Assembly: GCF_056746865.1 (NCBI RefSeq)
Contig: NZ_CM163382.1
Strand: one strand, 5' to 3'
Length of the DNA stretch: 64,000 bases
Under the pieces are notes generated by a model. The model made no database searches. It had not been told where the DNA came from and saw nothing but the letters and a program-made list of their open reading frames with translations. Positions 2,424-49,401 of the stretch are shown piece by piece (the stretch's first letter is position 1; each line of letters begins with the position of its first letter). The position numbers and the translations under genes were made by a program.

Positions 2424-5075
2424 TTAGCGACAGATTGCTGTCTGCTGGTTCAGTAAGGTACCAGGAGAAACTTCAGGAAGCTTGTACTCGACAATACAGT
2501 TTGAGTTTTTATCTTTGCCCCATGAAACCTGTAATTTCCCTGACTGTGGAAGTCCAGTCAGATAAACCTGACCGTTTTCCGCGACAATGCTGCCATTTTT
2601 ATTCTTTCCGTGAGTGACAATTGCACCGAATGGAACGCTCTTATTACCGTACTTCAACGTCATTAATACTTTCCCGCCGATTTGTGCATTAAATGTTGCT
2701 CTGGCAATAGCACCGTGAGTTGGGATGACAGTGACCACGGTTTCATCCAGTTCAACATTATCTGCAAGGGAATTCGCGTTAAGAGCGACACGATTTTCTC
2801 TATATTCTGTCGCAAATGGTAATATGGCATAGCCACGCCAGTCGGTATGAATACCGGTCTGGTTCTCTATTTTGACATTATCAGCGCCAGGAGCCTTAAC
2901 CAGAACCATTGTGTCGCCCAGCGGCTGTCCAAAGGTGATGCCATCAGCATGAGCAATAATGCCACCACTCATTCCGTAATAAATCTGGCTGCTGTCACCA
3001 CTCCGACTGTAACCGACATTCGTATTACCGTAAGCTCCACGATAATTAAGAGAACTGTAACCACTGGTGCCAGACGATGTATTACCCCCGTGGGTGTTAC
3101 CGACCTGAACACTATAATTCAGGTTATTATCCGGCAGCAGAGTGCCATAAACTCCCGATAGATTGGTCATGCCGCCTTTCAAATCGTTTGACATACTGTA
3201 ACTGGCGTTTGAATTACGAAATGCCGACTGACTGTCTGTACGCATCCAATGACTGAAGGGAACATTAAGCGTAAAAGCAAGTAAATGATCCCGATCGTTT
3301 TGCCATATATTATTGGAATAGCTGTAATTCAGCGAAGTCGTAATATCACCAAACGGCACATTTAATCCAAATGATATTTGCTGGTCGCTGCGTGACGTGT
3401 TCCAGTAACTTTGGCGACTGGCACTAAAAAATGTCGTACCGTAATTTCCAAGCTGCTGAGAGATGCTTATTTGTTCCTGACCACGCTTACTGTAGAACAG
3501 ATTAAAATAATCAATAAATTGTGTCTGCTCGTTGCTGTCTCCGGTAGGAGGCTTGACGGTGTAACCACTCATTCGACTGTAGGCACTGTCGGATAAGTTA
3601 TAAAAACCTTGCGTAGAATAGCGATATCCTGCGACCTGGATATTGGTTCCCGTCTGGTAGAAGGATTTGCTGTAGACGGATTTAATCGATTGCCCGCTGT
3701 GACGGGTGCCATCTGCAAGTGTCGTATTGGCCTGCGTGATATCGAAAGAAAAGGCACCAAAAAGTCCTAAATCTTTACCAATACCAAGGTTGAAGGCCTG
3801 ATAATCTTCTGCAATTTGCATTCCGCCATAAGGTGTCCAGTTTCCTTCCAGTCCATGCATCAAGCTACCTTGTATGAACTTGGGGGAGCTTTGCAGGTTA
3901 TTTCCACTACGATATTCCCCCATGGCAAGCGCATAACGCGTATATCCAGCACGTTGGAGAACCGGAACAGACGAATAAGGAACATATAATGTCTGAATAC
4001 TGCCGTCTGCCTCTTTTATGGTTACTTGCAGATCACCACCATTGGCCGCAGAGTTGATATCATCAATAGTAAAAGGGCCGGGTGGGACAGTAGTCTGATA
4101 AACATCGTATCCATTCTGTTTTACACTCACTTGTGCGGTGCCGCGGGCAATACCATGAATCACCGGAGCGAAACCATGTTGGCTATCGGGCAACATCGCT
4201 TCTGTTGAATTTATTTTGAGGCCACGAAAGTTCACACTATCAAAAATATCGCCATCGGTATAACTATCACCTACCGTTAAGCGTGAGCGTAAGGGAATAA
4301 TGTCACGTTCAGCCGACGTATTGATATGCTGCCATTTATTGCTGTCAGATGAATTGCTACTCCCACTGTTATAACTCCACGTTGAGTTATCGCGCAGTCG
4401 CCAACTACCAATGTTGATGCCACTCTGTAAATTCAAATATGCATAGTTGGATTTTCCTGCATTATGGTTACTACGATTATTAATAGAATTACCATTAAAA
4501 CTATAGTTTAGAAGCCCAGCATTTATTCCTTCTTCCCACAGATCAGGAGAAACATAGCCGCGAGCCATTCTGCCAACATAAATTTGCGGAACGGAGAGTG
4601 ACAGATGTTGCTGACCAACATCAAACTCAGTTGATGCGTCGGCCAAACGATCCTGAAGTGGTGTGCATGCGCTGTTGTCCGGCACATGTTTTTCTGCCGA
4701 ATGTTCTTTATTGTCTAATAACGCTGATTTTTTTATGCCAAGACTGACTAGAAGATCTGTACTCAGGCATGGGATGAGATCTGCGTTATTATCATCTGCA
4801 ATAAAAGTAATATCCCGACTAGTAATAAATTCGTCGTTCAAATAAATGTCGACCCGATATGTACCAGGTGGTGCCTCGCGTCCCTTAGTAAAGGCGGATA
4901 AATCGACAGATTCAGCAAGATCATTGCTTAAAAACCGTGGATTAAAATAATACTCTGCGTCAACGGGAAATACCGCAGTTGCTAAGCCAAGGGCAATGGT
5001 AAGCCGTGCAAAGCGAGGCAGTAGTAACACCTGATGCATACGATATGCCTTAAATGCGGCACGAAAGGCTGTCAT
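2424..5075 (-). CDS. ydeT: fimbrial outer-membrane usher (FimD/PapC family), apparently full length
   Basis: 883-aa ORF, Asn/Ser/Tyr/Gly-rich beta-barrel composition and usher length; follows chaperone gene; true start may be internal Met 13. Confidence 0.85.
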   Translation of the reverse strand: MTAFRAAFKAYRMHQVLLLPRFARLTIALGLATAVFPVDAEYYFNPRFLSNDLAESVDLSAFTKGREAPPGTYRVDIYLNDEFITSRDITFIADDNNADLIPCLSTDLLVSLGIKKSALLDNKEHSAEKHVPDNSACTPLQDRLADASTEFDVGQQHLSLSVPQIYVGRMARGYVSPDLWEEGINAGLLNYSFNGNSINNRSNHNAGKSNYAYLNLQSGINIGSWRLRDNSTWSYNSGSSNSSDSNKWQHINTSAERDIIPLRSRLTVGDSYTDGDIFDSVNFRGLKINSTEAMLPDSQHGFAPVIHGIARGTAQVSVKQNGYDVYQTTVPPGPFTIDDINSAANGGDLQVTIKEADGSIQTLYVPYSSVPVLQRAGYTRYALAMGEYRSGNNLQSSPKFIQGSLMHGLEGNWTPYGGMQIAEDYQAFNLGIGKDLGLFGAFSFDITQANTTLADGTRHSGQSIKSVYSKSFYQTGTNIQVAGYRYSTQGFYNLSDSAYSRMSGYTVKPPTGDSNEQTQFIDYFNLFYSKRGQEQISISQQLGNYGTTFFSASRQSYWNTSRSDQQISFGLNVPFGDITTSLNYSYSNNIWQNDRDHLLAFTLNVPFSHWMRTDSQSAFRNSNASYSMSNDLKGGMTNLSGVYGTLLPDNNLNYSVQVGNTHGGNTSSGTSGYSSLNYRGAYGNTNVGYSRSGDSSQIYYGMSGGIIAHADGITFGQPLGDTMVLVKAPGADNVKIENQTGIHTDWRGYAILPFATEYRENRVALNANSLADNVELDETVVTVIPTHGAIARATFNAQIGGKVLMTLKYGNKSVPFGAIVTHGKNKNGSIVAENGQVYLTGLPQSGKLQVSWGKDKNSNCIVEYKLPEVSPGTLLNQQTAICR

Positions 5076-7186: not shown

Positions 7187-7441
7187 TTAAAGCTGATCGA
7201 CAGACTTTCTTAACCTGGCAATATCTCTCTTAGGTGACTCTCCAAACATCCGCGAATATTCCCGACTGAAATGGGATAAGCTTTCGTAACCGACAGCATA
7301 GGCTGCAGTGGTGACATCGTAATGTTCATTCAGCATCAGTCGCCTGGCTTCATTGAGGCGTAGCCATTTCTGATACCGGAGTGGACTCATTCCCGCAAGC
7401 TGTCTGAAGTGTTGATGGAAAGAGGGTGTGTTCATTTGCAC
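7187..7441 (-). pseudogene. yneL: C-terminal fragment of AraC-family transcriptional regulator (HTH only)
   Basis: 84-aa ORF carrying only the second AraC HTH (…YESLSHFSREYSRMFGESP…); no in-frame N-terminal domain upstream. Confidence 0.6.
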
Positions 7442-7721
7442 GCGGTTTGCCAGCCTGACTCTTCAACGCAGGGAAGATGCGGCAAACGGCAAACCTGCAT
7501 ACCAGCCAGCCTATATCCGGTATGCACAGGCCAATCATGAAAGAGGAGAGGCTTTATGTTCTGGAACCCTGAAGTAATAACGACGACCGTAAAATCGCTT
7601 CGCATCACTCAAATTCCATTTAACTATTCTGGGTTTGAGGGATATACATAATTGACTTCAGCACCAGAAACAGCATAACAAACTGTTTTAAATGGATATT
7701 AATCAAATGACGATTCAAACT

Positions 7722-7855: not shown

Positions 7856-8659
7856 TTACGTTTTACTCGATGAGCGATTGATTAATACCTCTCCGACAAC
7901 AGGAGCAGCGGTAAATGCGTTTGGCCAGCCAGCGTAAAACGCGGCTTGGGTAACGATCTCCCCAGCTTCCTCAGCAGAAAGTCCATTATCCATCGCTCTG
8001 TTAAGGTGATAGCCAATCTGCGCGCTCTGTCCAGATGCGATTAACGCGCTGACCGTAATCAGGCTTCTATCACGGGGGGTTAGCGCGGGTCTTTGCCAGA
8101 GATCCAGGAACAGTGGGTCAGCAGTAAATTTAACCAAGCCTGGAGATATTCGGCCAACATTTTTTTCCACTGTCTCTGAACGCTGCTTTTCTGCTTCCTG
8201 ATTGAGAGGAAGCAGGTCCGGAGAAGCGTCAGGAAGCGCATCTGGCGTGACGCCACGAGTTTCAAATACTGCTTTGGTCACGCTGACGGCTGACATTGCA
8301 TTTGGCCAACCTGAGTAGAACGCCAGATGGGTAATGATTTCTGATAATTCCGCTGGCGTCACGCCGCTATCGAGAGCGACGTCAATATAGTGCTTAAGCT
8401 CGGCAGGCTGGTTGCGGGCAATCAGCATGGCGACGGTCACCACACTACGATCCCTCGGTGAGAGGGCGTCGCGTGTCCACAGATCTTCAGTAATAGCTTC
8501 GCGACCAAAGCGCGCGAGAGCCGGTGAGACGGAACGAATATCAGCTTCCGAAATCGCTGACGGTTCTATTTTCATCATAGCTTTACCTCTTGTTTCCTCA
8601 GCATTGGCAAAATCAGAAATAACAAGCGACATAGCCGCTGCTGCAAGTACGCTTTTCAT
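7856..8659 (-). CDS. secreted tandem carboxymuconolactone-decarboxylase (CMD / AhpD-like) family protein
   Basis: 267-aa ORF with signal peptide; two repeats each carrying the CMD-type motif (ITHLAFYSGWPNA and VTQAAFYAGWPNA). Confidence 0.65.
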   Translation of the reverse strand: MKSVLAAAAMSLVISDFANAEETRGKAMMKIEPSAISEADIRSVSPALARFGREAITEDLWTRDALSPRDRSVVTVAMLIARNQPAELKHYIDVALDSGVTPAELSEIITHLAFYSGWPNAMSAVSVTKAVFETRGVTPDALPDASPDLLPLNQEAEKQRSETVEKNVGRISPGLVKFTADPLFLDLWQRPALTPRDRSLITVSALIASGQSAQIGYHLNRAMDNGLSAEEAGEIVTQAAFYAGWPNAFTAAPVVGEVLINRSSSKT

Positions 8660-8674
8660 GTTAATCCTTACTGG

Positions 8675-9400
8675 TCAACGTTGCGGCTCCTGTTTGATTC
8701 CGCCTTTGTTACGAAGAAATACCGGTTTTACCGGGATTGCGTCCTTCCTGGCGCTCATATGCGCCGTTTGCCTGAGGTAATCCAGGAAGTGCAGCGTTTG
8801 TCGGTGCAGTTGATAATCCTCCTCACTGGCGTAAATCTCATAGAAATACCAGCGTTTTGGAGTCTCTGAATCTGTACCGGCATACATGGCTAACACGCCT
8901 TTCTCTACTTTGAGCGACTCGACCATTTCAGGAAGGACGATGTTTCTAAATTCGCTCTGAAATTCAGGCTTTACTTCGACGATCACCAGATTATTGATAG
9001 TTCGTTCATTCGGTATGATGTGTTTGTCGCCCAGAAACTGTGGCTCCAGGGTAATTTTCTTCTTACTGTCAATAATGTCAGGTGCACGAGCAGCGAATGC
9101 TTTGTATGGGGCGGCATTGAGATGTTTGCGATAAGCACGCTCATTTTCATAGAGTTCGAACATGAATGCCTGACCTGAATTGTCGCTGCGTTGCAGGGCA
9201 TACATCGCCAGTGTACCTGCTTCATGATCAACCGAAGCGGAAATCGTCTGTCTGGCCACGTCTGCAAAGTCGTTGTCCCGATCGGGTCTGATGCCGAGCT
9301 CGAAGATATTCATCTCCGGCTTATTCGGCGCGTCCGGTTTTGTTGCAAAGACAGGGCTGCTTATTAGCATGCAAATTAAAAGCATAAAAGTCTTTTTCAC
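8675..9400 (-). CDS. secreted protein with two ABM (antibiotic-biosynthesis-monooxygenase-like) domains
   Basis: 241-aa ORF with signal peptide (MKKTFMLLICMLISSPVFA); two ~100-aa repeats with ABM-like pattern (AMYALQRSD…FMFELYENE / AMYAGTDSE…YFYEIYASE). Confidence 0.5.
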   Translation of the reverse strand: MKKTFMLLICMLISSPVFATKPDAPNKPEMNIFELGIRPDRDNDFADVARQTISASVDHEAGTLAMYALQRSDNSGQAFMFELYENERAYRKHLNAAPYKAFAARAPDIIDSKKKITLEPQFLGDKHIIPNERTINNLVIVEVKPEFQSEFRNIVLPEMVESLKVEKGVLAMYAGTDSETPKRWYFYEIYASEEDYQLHRQTLHFLDYLRQTAHMSARKDAIPVKPVFLRNKGGIKQEPQR

Positions 9401-9515
9401 GATGATCTTTTTACTGACATTACTGTTTAAGACGTTCGATCAACTGGTGCTGGTAAGAACGTAACCGACCGCTACTGGCGCTCTCAAAGACGAGAGGAGG
9501 AAAAGTGAATAAGGG

Positions 9516-10535
9516 CTATCGCATCCAGACCTGCTTAACATCTTTCGTTTGCGGCGTATTTTGCGCCATGATCCCCGTCAGAACATGCGGCTGGTAGGTT
9601 TCTTCCAGAAACTGAATTTCCTCCGGACTTAGTTGAAGATTTACTGCGTTTACCGCGCCATCGACATGAGCTTTTTTTGTAGCCCCTACGACAGGTGATG
9701 TGACTTTTGTCAGCAGCCAAGCGAGAGATATTTCCGTCATTGACACCAGATGGCGTTCGGCCAGTTCGGCTACACGCTCAATAATGCTGCGATCCTGTTC
9801 AGCCGTGCTGTCATATTTTCCACGCGCATAGTCATCCTCTGTGGCTCGCCGTGTATAGCCTTCTTTACGAGAGAGGCGGCCGCTGGCCAGCGCGCTATAG
9901 GGGGTCATTGCGATATTATCCTCAGTGCACAGGCCGAAGAGCTCCCGTTCATCTTCGCGCATAATTAGATTGTAGTGGCTCTGTACGGAAACAAAGGGCG
10001 TCAGCCCTTCGCGTTCAGCAAGGGCGTTCGCCTTCGCCAGCTGCCAGGCATAGCAGTTTGAAATACCAACAGCTCGTACTTTGCCAGCAGTAACAGCGGT
10101 ATGTAACGCTTCAAGCACGTCGATAATGGGCGTGTTGTAATCCCAGATGTGGTAGATGTAGAGGTCGATATAGTCCATCCCCAGATTCTTCAGGCTCTGG
10201 TCAAGGGATTGAGCGATTGCCTCTTTTCCGCTGATCCCTCCGGCAATTTGTGCGGGGGTTCGCGGCAGAAACTTGGTGGCCAGGACGATATCATCGCGTT
10301 TCGCCATCTCCCGTAATGCCCGGCCAACGTATCGCTCACTGGAGCCATTCTGGTAGGCTATAGCGGTATCGTAAAAGTTGATGCCCTTTTCAAGGCCATA
10401 GCGAATGATGTCGCGGCTTGCTGTTTCGTCCAGCGTCCAGCTATGCTGACCCGTCGACGGATCGCCAAACCCCATGCATCCCATGCAGATGCGGGAAACA
10501 AGTAAGTCACTTTTACCGAGCCGGGTATACTGCAT
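9516..10535 (-). CDS. aldo-keto reductase family oxidoreductase
   Basis: 339-aa ORF; N-terminus MQYTRLGKSDLLVSRICMGCMGFG and overall pattern typical of AKRs (Tas/YajO-like). Confidence 0.8.
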   Translation of the reverse strand: MQYTRLGKSDLLVSRICMGCMGFGDPSTGQHSWTLDETASRDIIRYGLEKGINFYDTAIAYQNGSSERYVGRALREMAKRDDIVLATKFLPRTPAQIAGGISGKEAIAQSLDQSLKNLGMDYIDLYIYHIWDYNTPIIDVLEALHTAVTAGKVRAVGISNCYAWQLAKANALAEREGLTPFVSVQSHYNLIMREDERELFGLCTEDNIAMTPYSALASGRLSRKEGYTRRATEDDYARGKYDSTAEQDRSIIERVAELAERHLVSMTEISLAWLLTKVTSPVVGATKKAHVDGAVNAVNLQLSPEEIQFLEETYQPHVLTGIMAQNTPQTKDVKQVWMR

Positions 10536-10537
10536 TG

Positions 10538-11110
10538 TTATTCTCCCTCTGGATTATTCACGACGGAATTGAGCAGTTCGACAAGCCTTGAAGCGTGTTC
10601 CCGGGCAAGCGTTTTTTGCTGCGCGATTTTGTCGGCATCCCGGTCGGCATAGCTGATACCGCAGGTATAAACCGGCGCCAGCAGCTCAAGATTGCACAGC
10701 CTTGCCGTGGTTTCGAACGGAATAAGATACTCTTCAATGGTATGGCCAAAGAAACTGTCGACGGTATAGAGCTCCTCTGGCGCTCCCGTTGTAAAGGAGA
10801 GGATCAGCTTTTTACCGCCCAGTTTCGCCGTTGAGCCATGCGCGAAGCCGTGAACAAAGACCTCGTCCAGCCATTTTTTCATTAATCCTGGCAGCCCATA
10901 CCAGGAAAAAGGGAACTGCCAGACAATCACATCGGCCCTGAGCAGGCTTTCCTGCTCCGCCGCGATGTTGAATTTGCCATCCGGATAGAGCCTGTCCAGA
11001 CGACGAATCTCAACATCAGGAAGGGCGGTCTCCACTTCATCAAGAATAGTGGCATTGGCGACGGAATGGGTAAGCTCAGGATGACCTGAAATAACAAGGA
11101 TATTTTTCAT
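10538..11110 (-). CDS. flavodoxin-like NAD(P)H:quinone oxidoreductase family protein
   Basis: 190-aa ORF beginning MKNILVISGHP…, resembles Flavodoxin_2 / KefG / MdaB-type quinone reductases; 2-bp gap to upstream AKR gene. Confidence 0.65.
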   Translation of the reverse strand: MKNILVISGHPELTHSVANATILDEVETALPDVEIRRLDRLYPDGKFNIAAEQESLLRADVIVWQFPFSWYGLPGLMKKWLDEVFVHGFAHGSTAKLGGKKLILSFTTGAPEELYTVDSFFGHTIEEYLIPFETTARLCNLELLAPVYTCGISYADRDADKIAQQKTLAREHASRLVELLNSVVNNPEGE

Positions 11111-11260
11111 TTCAATCAGTTAAACATCTTTGGTGAATATTAAATCCAGTATAGAGTGACAACATTATTTTTTTAGAGCAGTAAAGGCTCATTCACTTTT
11201 AGGCAAAAACTAATAATTGTCGGCTGATCACAATGTGCTCAGTCATCATGAAACGGTGAA

Positions 11261-11938
11261 CTAAACCGTGATGCCCAGTAAACGTTCTGCATTGCGAAAC
11301 GCGATGGCCTCTTTTTCAGCCTTGTTGACGGGCAGACTGTCTATAAAGGTTTTTACACCGTCCAGGGTCTGATAGGGATAATCGACGGAGAACAGGATCC
11401 TTTCAGCACCCATTAACGCGTAGATAAACTGGAAGTGCGGCAGTGTTAGCATATGACGGGGTAACGTAAACGTGTTCCTGGAAGGTTCTCGTTAGCGTGC
11501 GTGACAGACCCGTTGCAGCCAGTGGCAGGCTGTCATCAAGACGCTGGAGCCAGAAGGGTAACATCTCACCCCAGTGGCCACTGATTACCTGCAAGTGGGG
11601 ATATTTATCAAATGCACCCGATAACATCAGCCGCAACAAATGGATCCCCGCTTCGTGATGCCAGCCCCAGGCAAACATAGAAAGCCTGGAGTTGACCTCT
11701 GCGCTGAAGCCCGTGAAGTAGGCCTGCTGTACGCTTTTAAGCGGTAACCCGGGATGAAGATAGAGTGGCACATTCAGTTTATTAAAGCGGGAAAGCAGGG
11801 AGTCGGTCAGGATTATGACCATCAGCGACGGTTTTCCCCCAGTCGCCAAGGAAAGGTGCCTGCTCAAGCGCAACAGGCATACACGCTCGCCCTAACTCGC
11901 TGTCGAGATAATTTTCTTCGAGGCAAATGATTTTCATA
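11261..11938 (-). pseudogene. amidohydrolase-family gene disrupted by at least two frameshifts
   Basis: Three consecutive reading frames carry pieces: MKIICLEENYL… (from ATG 11938), then …ISGHWGEMLPFWLQRLDDS…, then …FSVDYPYQTLDG…; metal-dependent amidohydrolase-like motifs but no single intact frame. Confidence 0.5.
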
Positions 11939-12039
11939 TTCTCACCATTCATACAAAGCAGTAAAAGTGATACAGATTAGAATCACCCGGAACAGCCCGT
12001 TCGTGTGTGTCATTCATGACAGTCTGTTCCGGACGGGCT

Positions 12040-12987
12040 TTACACCATCGGTTTTTCCCAGGCGCCTCGTGTATCCACTCTGGTCTCTGCGGCGAGTTGT
12101 TCCAGCAGGATGATTTCCTCATCGCGTAACTGGATGTCTGAAGCGCAGGCGGCGTCCAGAACGTGATGGACTTTAGTCGCACCAACGAGGGGAAGGGTAC
12201 CTTTCGCAATAGCCCATGCGATGGCTATCTGTGCCACGCTGGCATTCCTTTCGGCTCCCATTTTTTTCATGGCGGCGGTTAGTCTTTCTATCTGCGGCAG
12301 TACTGCGTTATAACTTTCGGCCCGGCCACTCCCGGCAGGCATGGGATGATTTGAATCATAACGACCACTGAGCGCGCCTTGCTCCAGGACCATGTAAGCA
12401 AAGAACGTGATGTTATTTTGTCGGCAATAATCAAGGATCCCGGCCTCTTCAGAAGCGCGATAGAGCAGGCTGTAGTGATTTTGTACTGCACTGAGGGAAT
12501 AACCGGAAGCGTTAAGGATTTCATTGGCGCGTCTGATTTGTGCCAGATTGTGGTTGGAAACACCTACGCGTTTTACCTTACCGCTTTGTAAAAGTGGGAT
12601 CAGTCCTGGTGTCCATTTTTCGACGTCGAGGGGATTATGGATCCAGTAGATATCAATCGCGTCCACGCCCAGGCGCCCAAGGCTGGCCTCAAGCATATCG
12701 CTGACAGGCTGCGCAGACTGCTTGTCCGCAATCTGCGGCGTGAATTTGGTGGATAAAATTATGTTCTCGCGGGGAAACTGACGGACTAATGCTCCCAGCG
12801 CAGTCTCGGAACTCCCCATACCATATACTGCTGCGGTATCCCAGAGATTGAGGCCCTTACTCATGGCCGCAGTGAACACTTCTGCCATCTGAGTATCAGA
12901 AAGATGATTACCAAAGACGGTGTCGCCGCCGGCAAAGCCTGTGCCCCAGGACCATGTACCTAGTGCGACTGGAGGTAGTGTTTTCAT
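12040..12987 (-). CDS. aldo-keto reductase family oxidoreductase (second copy)
   Basis: 315-aa ORF with AKR-like N-terminus and overall pattern. Confidence 0.75.
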   Translation of the reverse strand: MKTLPPVALGTWSWGTGFAGGDTVFGNHLSDTQMAEVFTAAMSKGLNLWDTAAVYGMGSSETALGALVRQFPRENIILSTKFTPQIADKQSAQPVSDMLEASLGRLGVDAIDIYWIHNPLDVEKWTPGLIPLLQSGKVKRVGVSNHNLAQIRRANEILNASGYSLSAVQNHYSLLYRASEEAGILDYCRQNNITFFAYMVLEQGALSGRYDSNHPMPAGSGRAESYNAVLPQIERLTAAMKKMGAERNASVAQIAIAWAIAKGTLPLVGATKVHHVLDAACASDIQLRDEEIILLEQLAAETRVDTRGAWEKPMV

Positions 12988-13060
12988 ATTCAGCTCCTGA
13001 AAAAAGGCCGGATCGTGGCTGACTTAAACCGGCCAAGTAAGGTGAGTAACGATGAATTAA

Positions 13061-13762
13061 TTAAGCTGTCCGGCGGAGTGCATTTAACAGCGCCACACCA
13101 ACCCCATGTGCTGAAGCGGGATTCTGCCCCGTGATAAGGCGATCGTCGGTAACCACGTTTTCAGACCAGTTTGGAGCTTCATGATAAAGCGCACCATGCT
13201 CGCGAAGTGCGGTTTCAAGCAGGAAGGGAACCACATCTGTTGTGTGAACTTCTTCCTCTTCCTTGTTGGTAAAGGCCGCCACATTTTTCCCTTTTATCAG
13301 GTATTCGCCGCTACTGAGTTTTGCGTCAACCAATGCCGCAGGCCCGTGGCAGACGGCTGAGACAATCCCATCACTTTCATACACTTCGCGGATAATACGC
13401 TGGGCATCCTGATTATCACGGAAATCCCACATGGTCCCATGACCACCTGCAAAGAAAACTGCGCTGTAATCGGCACCTTTCAGCTCGGATAACGCAGGTG
13501 TTGTTGCCAGGCGCTGCTGAAAATCGGTTTCGTTCCAGTACCAGGCGTTAACAGGGTCGCTGAGGTCAAATCCATCCACCGGTGGCTGCCCCCCGCGAAT
13601 ACTGGCTATTGTTGTTTTTATTCCGGCATCTTCCAGTACTTTCAGCGGATGAGTCAGCTCGGCCAGGAAAAAACCGGTTGGTACACCGGATGCGCCTTTA
13701 ATCGGATGGCTGGAAACGACACATAGCACTGGTTTATATGCAGGTTTCATATCGGTCCTCAC
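13061..13762 (-). CDS. DJ-1/PfpI (class I glutamine-amidotransferase-like) family protein
   Basis: 233-aa ORF with nucleophile-elbow-like motif AVCHGP; GAGG RBS before ATG 13762; start overlaps upstream gene stop by 4 bp (ATGA). Confidence 0.65.
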   Translation of the reverse strand: MRTDMKPAYKPVLCVVSSHPIKGASGVPTGFFLAELTHPLKVLEDAGIKTTIASIRGGQPPVDGFDLSDPVNAWYWNETDFQQRLATTPALSELKGADYSAVFFAGGHGTMWDFRDNQDAQRIIREVYESDGIVSAVCHGPAALVDAKLSSGEYLIKGKNVAAFTNKEEEEVHTTDVVPFLLETALREHGALYHEAPNWSENVVTDDRLITGQNPASAHGVGVALLNALRRTA

Positions 13763-14070
13763 TCTTTATTTTTAAATTCATCGGCGAAGAGATTTTCCCA
13801 GTTAATAAAGGAGCCAAGCGGTATACACTCGAAGCTTAGTAAGCCTGCTTTTGCCAACGGGAATTCGGCCATAACGTTCATCGCTTCATCGACAGAGTCA
13901 CATTCAAGAAAAATAGCGACGCCAGGTCTGTCCTGACGGAAGTAGATGTCGCGGATGAAGCCTGATTTATACAATCCCCAGGCGTGCAGCGCTTCAGCGT
14001 TGAGGTGCGGAGCATATTTCTCCAGCGATGCTCCAGGGGCAGGGATATCCAGACATAAAATTCGCATCAT
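13759..14070 (-). CDS. small muconolactone-isomerase-like protein
   Basis: 103-aa ORF; resemblance to muconolactone isomerase pattern is weak and by eye only; first gene of the co-oriented cluster. Confidence 0.35.
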   Translation of the reverse strand: MMRILCLDIPAPGASLEKYAPHLNAEALHAWGLYKSGFIRDIYFRQDRPGVAIFLECDSVDEAMNVMAEFPLAKAGLLSFECIPLGSFINWENLFADEFKNKE

Positions 14071-14206
14071 AGTCTCCTGAACTCAGGTCGTAGTAGAAAG
14101 AGACTAAAGTATAAGAGGCGTATTTCAGGAAGATTAGAGGGTCATTGACTTAAGCATTTTTAGACTGTACTTAATAATCAGGCGAGAATTGCTTTAGGAA
14201 AACATT

Positions 14207-15106
14207 ATGAATAACGCTCTTTATAACCAGATTCGCATCTTCCAGAGCATTGCGCGGGAGGGCAATATTTCGGCAGCCGCAAGGAAACTGGAAATTACGC
14301 CTCCCTCCGTCAGCAATGCACTAAAGCTGCTGGAAGAGTATATCGGTCATCCGCTTTTTGTGCGTACGACCCGCCGTATAGAGCTGACGGAAACCGGTCA
14401 ATTATTGCTGGAACAGACCGCTGCGGCGGTGGAGTCGCTGGAAAACTCACTTGAAAGCATTCGCGACCAGCATCAGGAGCCCTCAGGGATGGTGCGAATT
14501 ACGCTCTCGCGTTTTGCCTACCTGTTAATTCTTAAGCCTGCGATGGCAGAATTCTGTCAGCAATATCCGGGTATACAGTTAGAAATTTCGGTCTACGACG
14601 GTACCGTGAATATCATCAAAGAGCGTTTTGATCTGGGGATCCGTTTTGGCGATATTCTTGAGGGAGGGGTGGTGGCCCGACCGTTAATGAAACCGTTTCG
14701 TGAAGGATTATATGCATCCTCAGCGTATCTCTCCCGACATGGAACGCCTGAAGTGCCGGCAGATCTCTGTCATCACCAGCTGATTGGTTACCGTTTTATC
14801 ACCAACAACCGCATCCTTCCGCTGCTCCTGAACGATCGCGGTGAGCAGTTGACCGTTGAGATGCCGGGGCAGTTAATCAGCAACGATATTGACGTTATGG
14901 CAGACGGGATCCGTAACGGGCTGGGAATTGGGCGCTTGTTTGAGCCTGTCTGGCAGTTACAGCCGGACAGGGAGCGCTTTATTCCGGTGATGGAGAGCTA
15001 CTGGAAAACCTACCCGCCAGTGTATCTCTATTACCCCAAAAACGCGGGTAAAACGAAAAGAGTGAAGGCCCTGATTGATTTTCTGATATCCACTACGGGG
15101 CGATAA
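14207..15106 (+). CDS. LysR-family transcriptional regulator, divergent from the cluster
   Basis: 299-aa ORF with N-terminal HTH (…ISAAARKLEITPPSVSNALKLLEEYIGHPLFVRTTRRIELTETG…) and LysR substrate-binding-domain length. Confidence 0.85.
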   Translation: MNNALYNQIRIFQSIAREGNISAAARKLEITPPSVSNALKLLEEYIGHPLFVRTTRRIELTETGQLLLEQTAAAVESLENSLESIRDQHQEPSGMVRITLSRFAYLLILKPAMAEFCQQYPGIQLEISVYDGTVNIIKERFDLGIRFGDILEGGVVARPLMKPFREGLYASSAYLSRHGTPEVPADLCHHQLIGYRFITNNRILPLLLNDRGEQLTVEMPGQLISNDIDVMADGIRNGLGIGRLFEPVWQLQPDRERFIPVMESYWKTYPPVYLYYPKNAGKTKRVKALIDFLISTTGR

Positions 15107-49089: not shown

Positions 49090-49220
49090 GGGCAAATCCA
49101 CTGGGTAATATGAATGTTTTTATGGCCGTACTGGGAATAATTTTATTTTCTGGTTTTCTGGCCGCGTATTTCAGCCACAAATGGGATGACTAATGAACGG
49201 AGATAATCCCTCACCTAACC

Positions 49221-49260
49221 GGCCCCTTGTTACAGTTGTGTACAAGGGGCCTGATTTTTA
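49221..49260 (+). terminator. Rho-independent terminator downstream of mgtS
   Basis: 10-bp perfect stem GGCCCCTTGT / ACAAGGGGCC with 11-nt loop followed by TGATTTTTA. Confidence 0.75.
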
Positions 49261-49269
49261 TGACGGCAA

Positions 49270-49377
49270 AAAAAAACCGCCAGTAAACCGGCGGTGAATG
49301 CTTGCATGGATAGATTTGTGTTTTGCTTTTACGCTAACAGGCATTTTCCTGCACTGATAACGGATCGTTGACACAGT
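49270..49377 (-). ncRNA. mgrR: candidate PhoP-activated small RNA (MgrR-like)
   Basis: Minus-strand PhoP-box-type promoter (see 49402-49418) with -10-like AAAACT, about 100-nt transcript ending at minus-strand hairpin CCGCCGGTTTACTGGCGG + U9 (49268-49294); no long ORF. Confidence 0.45.
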
Positions 49378-49401
49378 AGCATCAGTTTTCTCAATGAATG
49401 T

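Follow-up and report, generated by a model that had tools for sequence, protein, structure and literature searches.

The minus-strand segment at 11261-11952 of the window, by which we mean the whole 64,000-nucleotide stretch of DNA that was analyzed, is very probably an old, ordinary, population-wide pseudogene of an amidohydrolase, located in a partly eroded accessory cluster. The segment retains collinear homology with its orthologs at loci L008, L009, L010, and L011, relative to which it carries a 356-bp deletion, a 2-bp deletion, and a His14Asn substitution. These lesions are heritable and real, as the junction of the larger deletion is found in 460 complete Escherichia coli genomes and an intact gene in 0 of 470. 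The locus shows a familiar pattern, in which a single ancient inactivation was followed by lineage-specific decay.

The broken gene and its lesions

Three collinear minus-strand open reading frames (ORFs), each in a different frame, make up the remnant: 11782-11952 (56 aa), 11403-11873 (156 aa), and 11261-11452 (63 aa). The two longer ORFs match the Pfam family PF04909 (Amidohydro_2) with 32.9 and 32.3 bits against a gathering cut-off of 26.4, and an intact ortholog scores 109 bits. An earlier note on this DNA had described an amidohydrolase gene whose coding signal switches frame twice while both flanking genes are intact. All of these points were borne out: the first by the PF04909 matches and by intact orthologs of 344-349 aa, the second by the three ORFs in three frames, and the third by neighbors that are uninterrupted and equal their orthologs exactly in length. 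Upstream lies a full-length aldo-keto reductase (AKR) gene (12040-12987, minus strand; 315 aa; PF00248) with a dN/dS of 0.08-0.15 against L008 and L011, and downstream lies a full-length gene for a flavodoxin-like NAD(P)H-dependent oxidoreductase (10538-11110, minus strand; 190 aa; PF02525) with a dN/dS of 0.14-0.22.

The remaining 230 codons of the amidohydrolase gene are split over the three frames. The 5' remnant (11803-11952, minus strand) comprises ancestral codons 1-50 (MNGENMKIICLEENY...HNPDR) and aligns to nt 1-150 of the intact genes L008, L009, and L010; it starts with the ATG at 11950-11952, and PGAP places the start at the ATG at 11935-11937. The middle remnant (11454-11801, minus strand) comprises codons 170-285 (SLLSRFNKLNVPLYLHPG...YVTPS), is out of frame with the 5' remnant, and holds His185. 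The 3' remnant (11261-11452, minus strand), which comprises codons 287-349 and the stop codon (MLTLPHF...LLGITV), occupies the third frame and holds Asp310. In strain 118UI, one of many complete E. coli chromosomes with 100% identity to 11100-12100, PGAP lists the fragments as separate proteins, one as a "hypothetical protein" and two as an "amidohydrolase family protein".

The largest lesion is the 356-bp deletion, whose junction at 11802-11805 (minus strand) was placed by DNA alignment to three intact genes, with a 356-column gap, and by exact reconstruction. The deleted segment corresponds to nt 149-504, 150-505, or 151-506 of the coding sequence (CDS), with a 2-bp GA microhomology, and the intact gene has an 8-bp direct repeat (ATCCTGAC) whose copies are at CDS nt 140 and 494. 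The deletion takes codons 51-169, or 119 of the 349 codons, and the frame shifts at 11802-11805 because 356 is not divisible by three. The earlier note was right that the gene is broken, but the upstream lesion that it had read as a frameshift is really this long deletion. The alignment to intact homologs that it had proposed placed both the 356-column gap and the GG gap, and the recovery of a single intact frame through read-level correction is ruled out by the 356 bp that are missing at this site. The first frame switch had been put at approximately 11850-11880, which is 45-75 nt from the true site, yet inside the ORF overlap (11782-11873); the second had been put at 11403-11452, and its true site between 11454 and 11453 is at the edge of that range. 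We also considered that the 119-codon segment might be an insertion in other genera, a reading that is disfavored because the solved structures of relatives contain the segment.

The second lesion, in codon 286 (GGT) at 11453-11454 (minus strand), is the loss of 2 bp (GG); it was identified in alignments to intact orthologs and is polymorphic in E. coli. Its context, GTCA[GG]TATG, contains no homopolymer run, and as neither lesion site is such a run, the homopolymer context suspected previously was not found. The third lesion is in codon 14 (11911-11913, minus strand), which reads AAT (Asn) in the window and CAT (His) in intact orthologs, where it encodes the His of the LEEHY motif. The earlier frame-based reading had overlooked this substitution of a family-invariant residue. 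His14Asn is found in the window, L004, L005, L006, and L018 and is absent from L002 and L003, whereas the window shares the GG deletion with L002, L003, and L004, and L005, L006, and L018 lack it. Such an incongruent distribution suggests that pseudogene alleles may have recombined with one another or that one of the mutations may have recurred.

Distribution and further decay in E. coli

The locus was found in 472 of 5426 complete E. coli genomes (~9%). A junction 80-mer matched 460 of the 5426 with at least 95% identity, and the 1001-bp stretch at 11100-12100 was present with at least 99% identity in 308 complete E. coli genomes. When the intact gene was used as the query, 0 of the 470 matching complete E. 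coli genomes covered at least 80% of it, and all of the matches were split in two around the deletion. A census with a 70-mer at the GG site recovered the GG-deleted form exactly in 312 genomes and with one SNP in 52 (~364 genomes). The 70-mer matched 99 genomes with 90%-95% identity, a band that was read as GG present on the basis of four rows, each 72 nt long, among the matches listed. Approximately 79% of carriers have the GG deletion, and ~21% keep a C-terminal ORF of 187 aa (L005 and L006).

Copies labelled E. coli that are intact do occur in the wider protein collection, and they were considered as a possible intact allele of this locus but rejected. These copies (L013-L017; 344 or 391 aa; labelled E. 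coli or E. whittamii) belong to a cluster variant and adjoin resolvase or integrase genes, phage tail genes, TraG, and ArdC, which places them on mobile elements and at other loci.

Several E. coli alleles carry additional lesions. Allele L002 has a +1 C insertion, and allele L004 has a 26-bp insertion and is flagged as a pseudogene by PGAP. In L018 (E. coli NRZ14408, 753-1340), an additional 91-bp deletion reopens a frame of 195-200 aa that is annotated as a normal protein, although the 200-aa form is also without His185. Two members of the protein cluster of this allele are listed with 608 and 416 contigs, and a partial match to the junction, consistent with this allele, was seen in only ~4 complete genomes. 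In L007 (strain 300444, 3303-3987), a larger deletion fuses the amidohydrolase remnant to a truncated DJ-1/PfpI gene and the 315-aa AKR is gone. The same type of larger deletion was observed in H158 (CFSAN018748). With regard to other parts of the cluster, a frameshift is annotated in the 190-aa reductase of L003 (O139:H1 P15-25, 940-1511), and the IS100 genes istA and istB are annotated inside the matched cluster span of H116 (strain E300010).

While independent secondary indels have accrued after inactivation, the substitutions that separate the alleles lean synonymous and lie on mosaic haplotypes, as seen when 11261-11801 was compared with L005, L008, and L010. Two deletion-bearing E. coli alleles differ by 9 synonymous and 6 non-synonymous changes (dN/dS 0.19), and the changes private to the window allele comprise ~7 synonymous and 1-2 non-synonymous ones. 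Long neutral decay would not give a synonymous bias of this kind. The window haplotype has states in common with L008, the KY1497 haplotype is almost the same as L010, and the genes of L008 and L010 are both intact. The simplest reading is that the variation was probably inherited from functional alleles or imported by recombination with them. Since the alleles are mosaics of haplotypes that are also found in intact genes, dN/dS was dropped as a proof of neutrality. Residual selection on the C-terminal part has no better than a slim chance of being correct.

This pattern bears on the possibility that the remnant has been kept for a new role, either as a shortened protein from the C-terminal part, which in some alleles has 187-200 aa, or as a transcribed spacer or a regulatory element that serves the reductase genes downstream. 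The ORFs of 187 aa (L005 and L006) and 200 aa (L018) count against a plain pseudogene reading. A new role could also account for the low dN/dS of 0.19 between deletion-bearing alleles, for the reopening of the 200-aa frame by the 91-bp deletion in NRZ14408 (with 608 and 416 contigs for the two cluster members), and for the continued presence of the remnant in ~460 genomes. However, the GG deletion breaks the C-terminal ORF once more in ~79% of carriers while other carriers add indels, the reopened 200-aa form has lost His185, half of a TIM barrel would be unlikely to fold, and the synonymous bias is accounted for by haplotypes common to intact genes. A scan of 10900-12300 found no promoter-like site, and it returned three weak terminator-like hairpins where 1.3 were expected. 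We therefore regard a new role as very unlikely.

Ancestral fold and metal ligands

Judged by homology, the ancestral gene had 349 codons and encoded a metal-dependent (beta/alpha)8 enzyme of the ACMSD-related subfamily Amidohydro_2. Among solved structures, the best match to the intact ortholog is an uncharacterized amidohydrolase of Staphylococcus aureus (PDB 3NUR, 3nur_A; E 2e-69 over residues 57-348), in comparison with which the window keeps only a short N-terminus and the parts that match residues from ~180 onward. The LigW/LigW2, gamma-resorcylate, 2,3-dihydroxybenzoate, and salicylate decarboxylases share the fold and subfamily of the intact ortholog at E 1e-30 to 1e-46 (1e-38 to 1e-46 for LigW2, 2,3-dihydroxybenzoate decarboxylase, and gamma-resorcylate decarboxylase), although this similarity is much weaker than that to 3NUR. 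The characterized relatives in the subfamily are non-oxidative hydroxy-aromatic-acid decarboxylases, and the ancestral enzyme is predicted to be decarboxylase-like. No NCBIfam equivalog model scored above its cut-off for the amidohydrolase or any of its neighbors, and the literature, when queried with RefSeq accessions and with 3NUR, yielded nothing on the intact ortholog or the cluster.

In characterized relatives, the metal is held by Glu8, (His10), His164/167, and Asp287/291/293 (PMC8187880, PMC7894528), and the Glu, His, His, and Asp ligand positions of these decarboxylases are conserved in the intact orthologs. His185 aligns with the ligand His164/167 in PDB alignments that include 3nur, 6m53, and 4inf, and Asp310 aligns with the catalytic/ligand Asp287/291 of solved structures. 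Glu12 and His14 are matched to Glu8 and His10 (the latter being a ligand of gamma-resorcylate decarboxylase) by the LEEH motif and by invariance only. Glu12, Glu13, and His14 are invariant in 114 of the 114 full-length homologs that have a residue there, and His185 and Asp310 are each kept in 115 of 116 full-length homologs.

The window copy departs from the family in both ligands and fold. Glu12 is present, His14 has become Asn, and His185 and Asp310 are encoded in other frames. A complete (beta/alpha)8 barrel in one frame (~330-350 aa) is lacking. An AlphaFold model of the intact ortholog (pLDDT 89, pTM 0.90) has the expected barrel, and the segment deleted from the window copy accounts for strands 83-86, 122-124, and 152-155 (beta2-beta4) and four helices of that model. 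The deleted segment also contains ~31 residues that are conserved in at least 97% of 116 homologs. When set against the characterized decarboxylases, the window copy has Asn at the first His, and its barrel cannot form.

These losses argue against a functional split or recoded gene, in which programmed frameshifting joins the ORFs or separate subunits assemble into an active enzyme. Such a gene might be expected to have overlapping ORFs that are collinear with the ancestral gene, as is the case here, and PGAP does annotate the ORFs as separate proteins. However, 119 codons, which encode three barrel strands and ~31 near-invariant residues, are absent from the DNA itself, His14 is mutated, the frame junctions vary between alleles, and no slippery heptamer was found by inspection at the junctions GACCGACTCCC and CGTCATATGC. 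A full-length product cannot be obtained by a +1 or -1 slip when 356 nt of coding sequence are gone, and we consider this explanation highly improbable. The weakest alternative, raised in the earlier note, is that sequencing or assembly errors such as homopolymer indels only make an intact gene look broken; nothing was found in its favor, and its probability is close to nil because the same junction occurs in 460 complete genomes that many laboratories sequenced on many platforms, the GG-deleted 70-mer in ~364, and the whole of 11100-12100 with at least 99% identity in 308, and because the first lesion is 356 bp long and neither site is a homopolymer run.

An old pseudogene is the reading that we retain, and its history may be proposed as follows. 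One 356-bp deletion beside the 8-bp repeat, with 2-bp microhomology, dropped codons 51-169 and shifted the frame, and the allele so deleted is the sole allele at the hipAB-adjacent locus in complete E. coli genomes. The dead gene then gained lineage-specific lesions, namely the GG deletion and His14Asn in the window copy and the +1 and 26-bp insertions and the 91-bp and larger deletions elsewhere. Because the fold and metal ligands are lost, the window copy would presumably yield no functional enzyme. Likewise, since the other cluster genes are full length and under purifying selection relative to their orthologs, the amidohydrolase step is probably dispensable in E. coli for whatever the remaining cluster genes still do.

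The accessory cluster and its relatives in other genera

The pseudogene is part of an accessory cluster at 7856-15106 that was delimited by Pfam and by the RefSeq annotation of the 100%-identical strain 118UI. The cluster runs from a CMD-family gene (7856-8659, minus strand), an ABM gene (8675-9400, minus strand), and a second AKR gene (9516-10535, minus strand) through the reductase, the amidohydrolase pseudogene, and the 315-aa AKR to a DJ-1/PfpI gene (13061-13762, minus strand), a small hypothetical ORF (13759-14070, minus strand), and a divergent LysR regulator (14207-15106, plus strand). In the 118UI annotation, the island is flanked on one side by ydeP and the ydeQRS fimbrial operon together with a helix-turn-helix pseudogene, and on the other side by hipAB. 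The suspicion of cluster decay voiced in the earlier note was confirmed by a separate 953-bp deletion that took two further genes. Its scar at 9401-9503 (minus strand; junction between 9503 and 9502) was located by alignment to L008 and the Enterobacter mori plasmid L011, and the deletion removed a DUF1330 gene together with the greater part of the gene for a second flavodoxin-like reductase, of which the last 26 codons (PPLVFESASSGRLRSYQHQLIERLKQ and the stop) are left. Both genes are present in L008, L010, and L011, which is the ancestral state. The other eight cluster genes have their full orthologous length, with a dN/dS against orthologs of 0.02-0.22 in the five tested, and the E. coli cluster is best described as partly eroded rather than dead.

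Other features of the region were also observed. A helix-turn-helix gene without its N-terminus at ~7187-7453 (8088-8354 in L001) is another PGAP pseudogene at the island border, and ydeT, yneL, and yneO of K-12, which lie in the same chromosomal region, are pseudogenes as well. All of these are different genes from the amidohydrolase, the remnant of which sits in an island carried by ~9% of genomes. By eye, signal-peptide-like hydrophobic N-termini are visible in the ABM (8675-9400), CMD (7856-8659), DUF1330, and second flavodoxin-like proteins (the latter two at 12833-13852 in L008), and part of the cluster products may be periplasmic. Unrelated to the amidohydrolase, a full-length Rfam match (281 bits) to the Hfq-binding sRNA STnc560 is located at 49187-49400 (minus strand).

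A search with the conceptually joined protein retrieved uninterrupted orthologs of 344-349 aa that are 94%-98% identical over the retained codons. These intact orthologs (among them WP_303570777.1, encoded on the Enterobacter mori LgD10 plasmid, and P0001-P0006) come from Enterobacter, Klebsiella, Pantoea, and Serratia. Their neighborhood resembles that of the window, with a hypothetical ORF, DJ-1/PfpI, AKR, amidohydrolase, flavodoxin-like reductase, AKR, ABM, CMD, and divergent LysR, but it also contains the DUF1330 gene and the second flavodoxin-like reductase gene, both of which the window is without. Relative to these loci, the gene in the window has lost 356 bp and 2 bp, and the cluster has lost 953 bp. 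The fullest cluster is found on an E. mori megaplasmid and on Logan contigs, in the order LysR (divergent), small ORF, DJ-1/PfpI, AKR, amidohydrolase, flavodoxin-like reductase, AKR, DUF1330, second flavodoxin-like reductase, ABM, and CMD. We take this to be a LysR-linked redox/detoxification cluster of ~10 genes that is passed between Enterobacteriaceae by plasmids and integrative elements, and its domain families point to a putative role in the handling of reactive carbonyls, quinones, or phenolic acids.

The amidohydrolase is also damaged outside E. coli. In the E. mori plasmid pHS08-091 (L012, 301-1319), the ortholog is frameshifted by its own 31-bp deletion between 9-bp direct repeats (CTGGCTGCA). 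The allele P0001/L010 (3179-5263) is of intact length but has His185Asn at a ligand position that is otherwise invariant, and the adjacent 315-aa AKR in L010 is split into pieces of 136 and 117 aa. The neighboring reductase genes are still full length in the E. coli and E. mori losses. It is possible, although rather unlikely in our judgment, that loss of the amidohydrolase is recurrent and perhaps favored rather than a single accident. Such recurrence could indicate a step that can be spared or that even carries a cost, and it would be compatible with selection against decarboxylation in host-associated Enterobacteriaceae, for example on account of a toxic phenolic or quinol product.

Further changes were seen at the protein level. 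In P0153 (E. bugandensis), C-terminal sequence of the upstream AKR is fused to amidohydrolase residue ~54, which suggests a possible deletion across a shared PQIE-coding motif, and P0168 (E. chengduensis) has His14Asp and ends after 59 aa. As far as can be judged from the protein sequences, the two have the appearance of additional, independent inactivations. Truncated forms were also noted among the proteins of E. hormaechei, K. aerogenes, and K. variicola.

The finding carries small scientific weight in itself, and the research interest is in the biochemical role of the intact cluster rather than in the gene break. For annotation, WP_001322415.1, WP_001322416.1, WP_001469139.1, and WP_023153757.1, which are named "hypothetical" or "amidohydrolase family protein", are pieces of a single pseudogene and ought to be left out of counts of E. 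coli proteins. The GG deletion, the +1 insertion, the 26-bp insertion, and the 91-bp deletion serve as lineage markers for strain typing. The hipA-adjacent island of E. coli represents an eroded copy of a mobile redox cluster of the Enterobacter or Klebsiella type.
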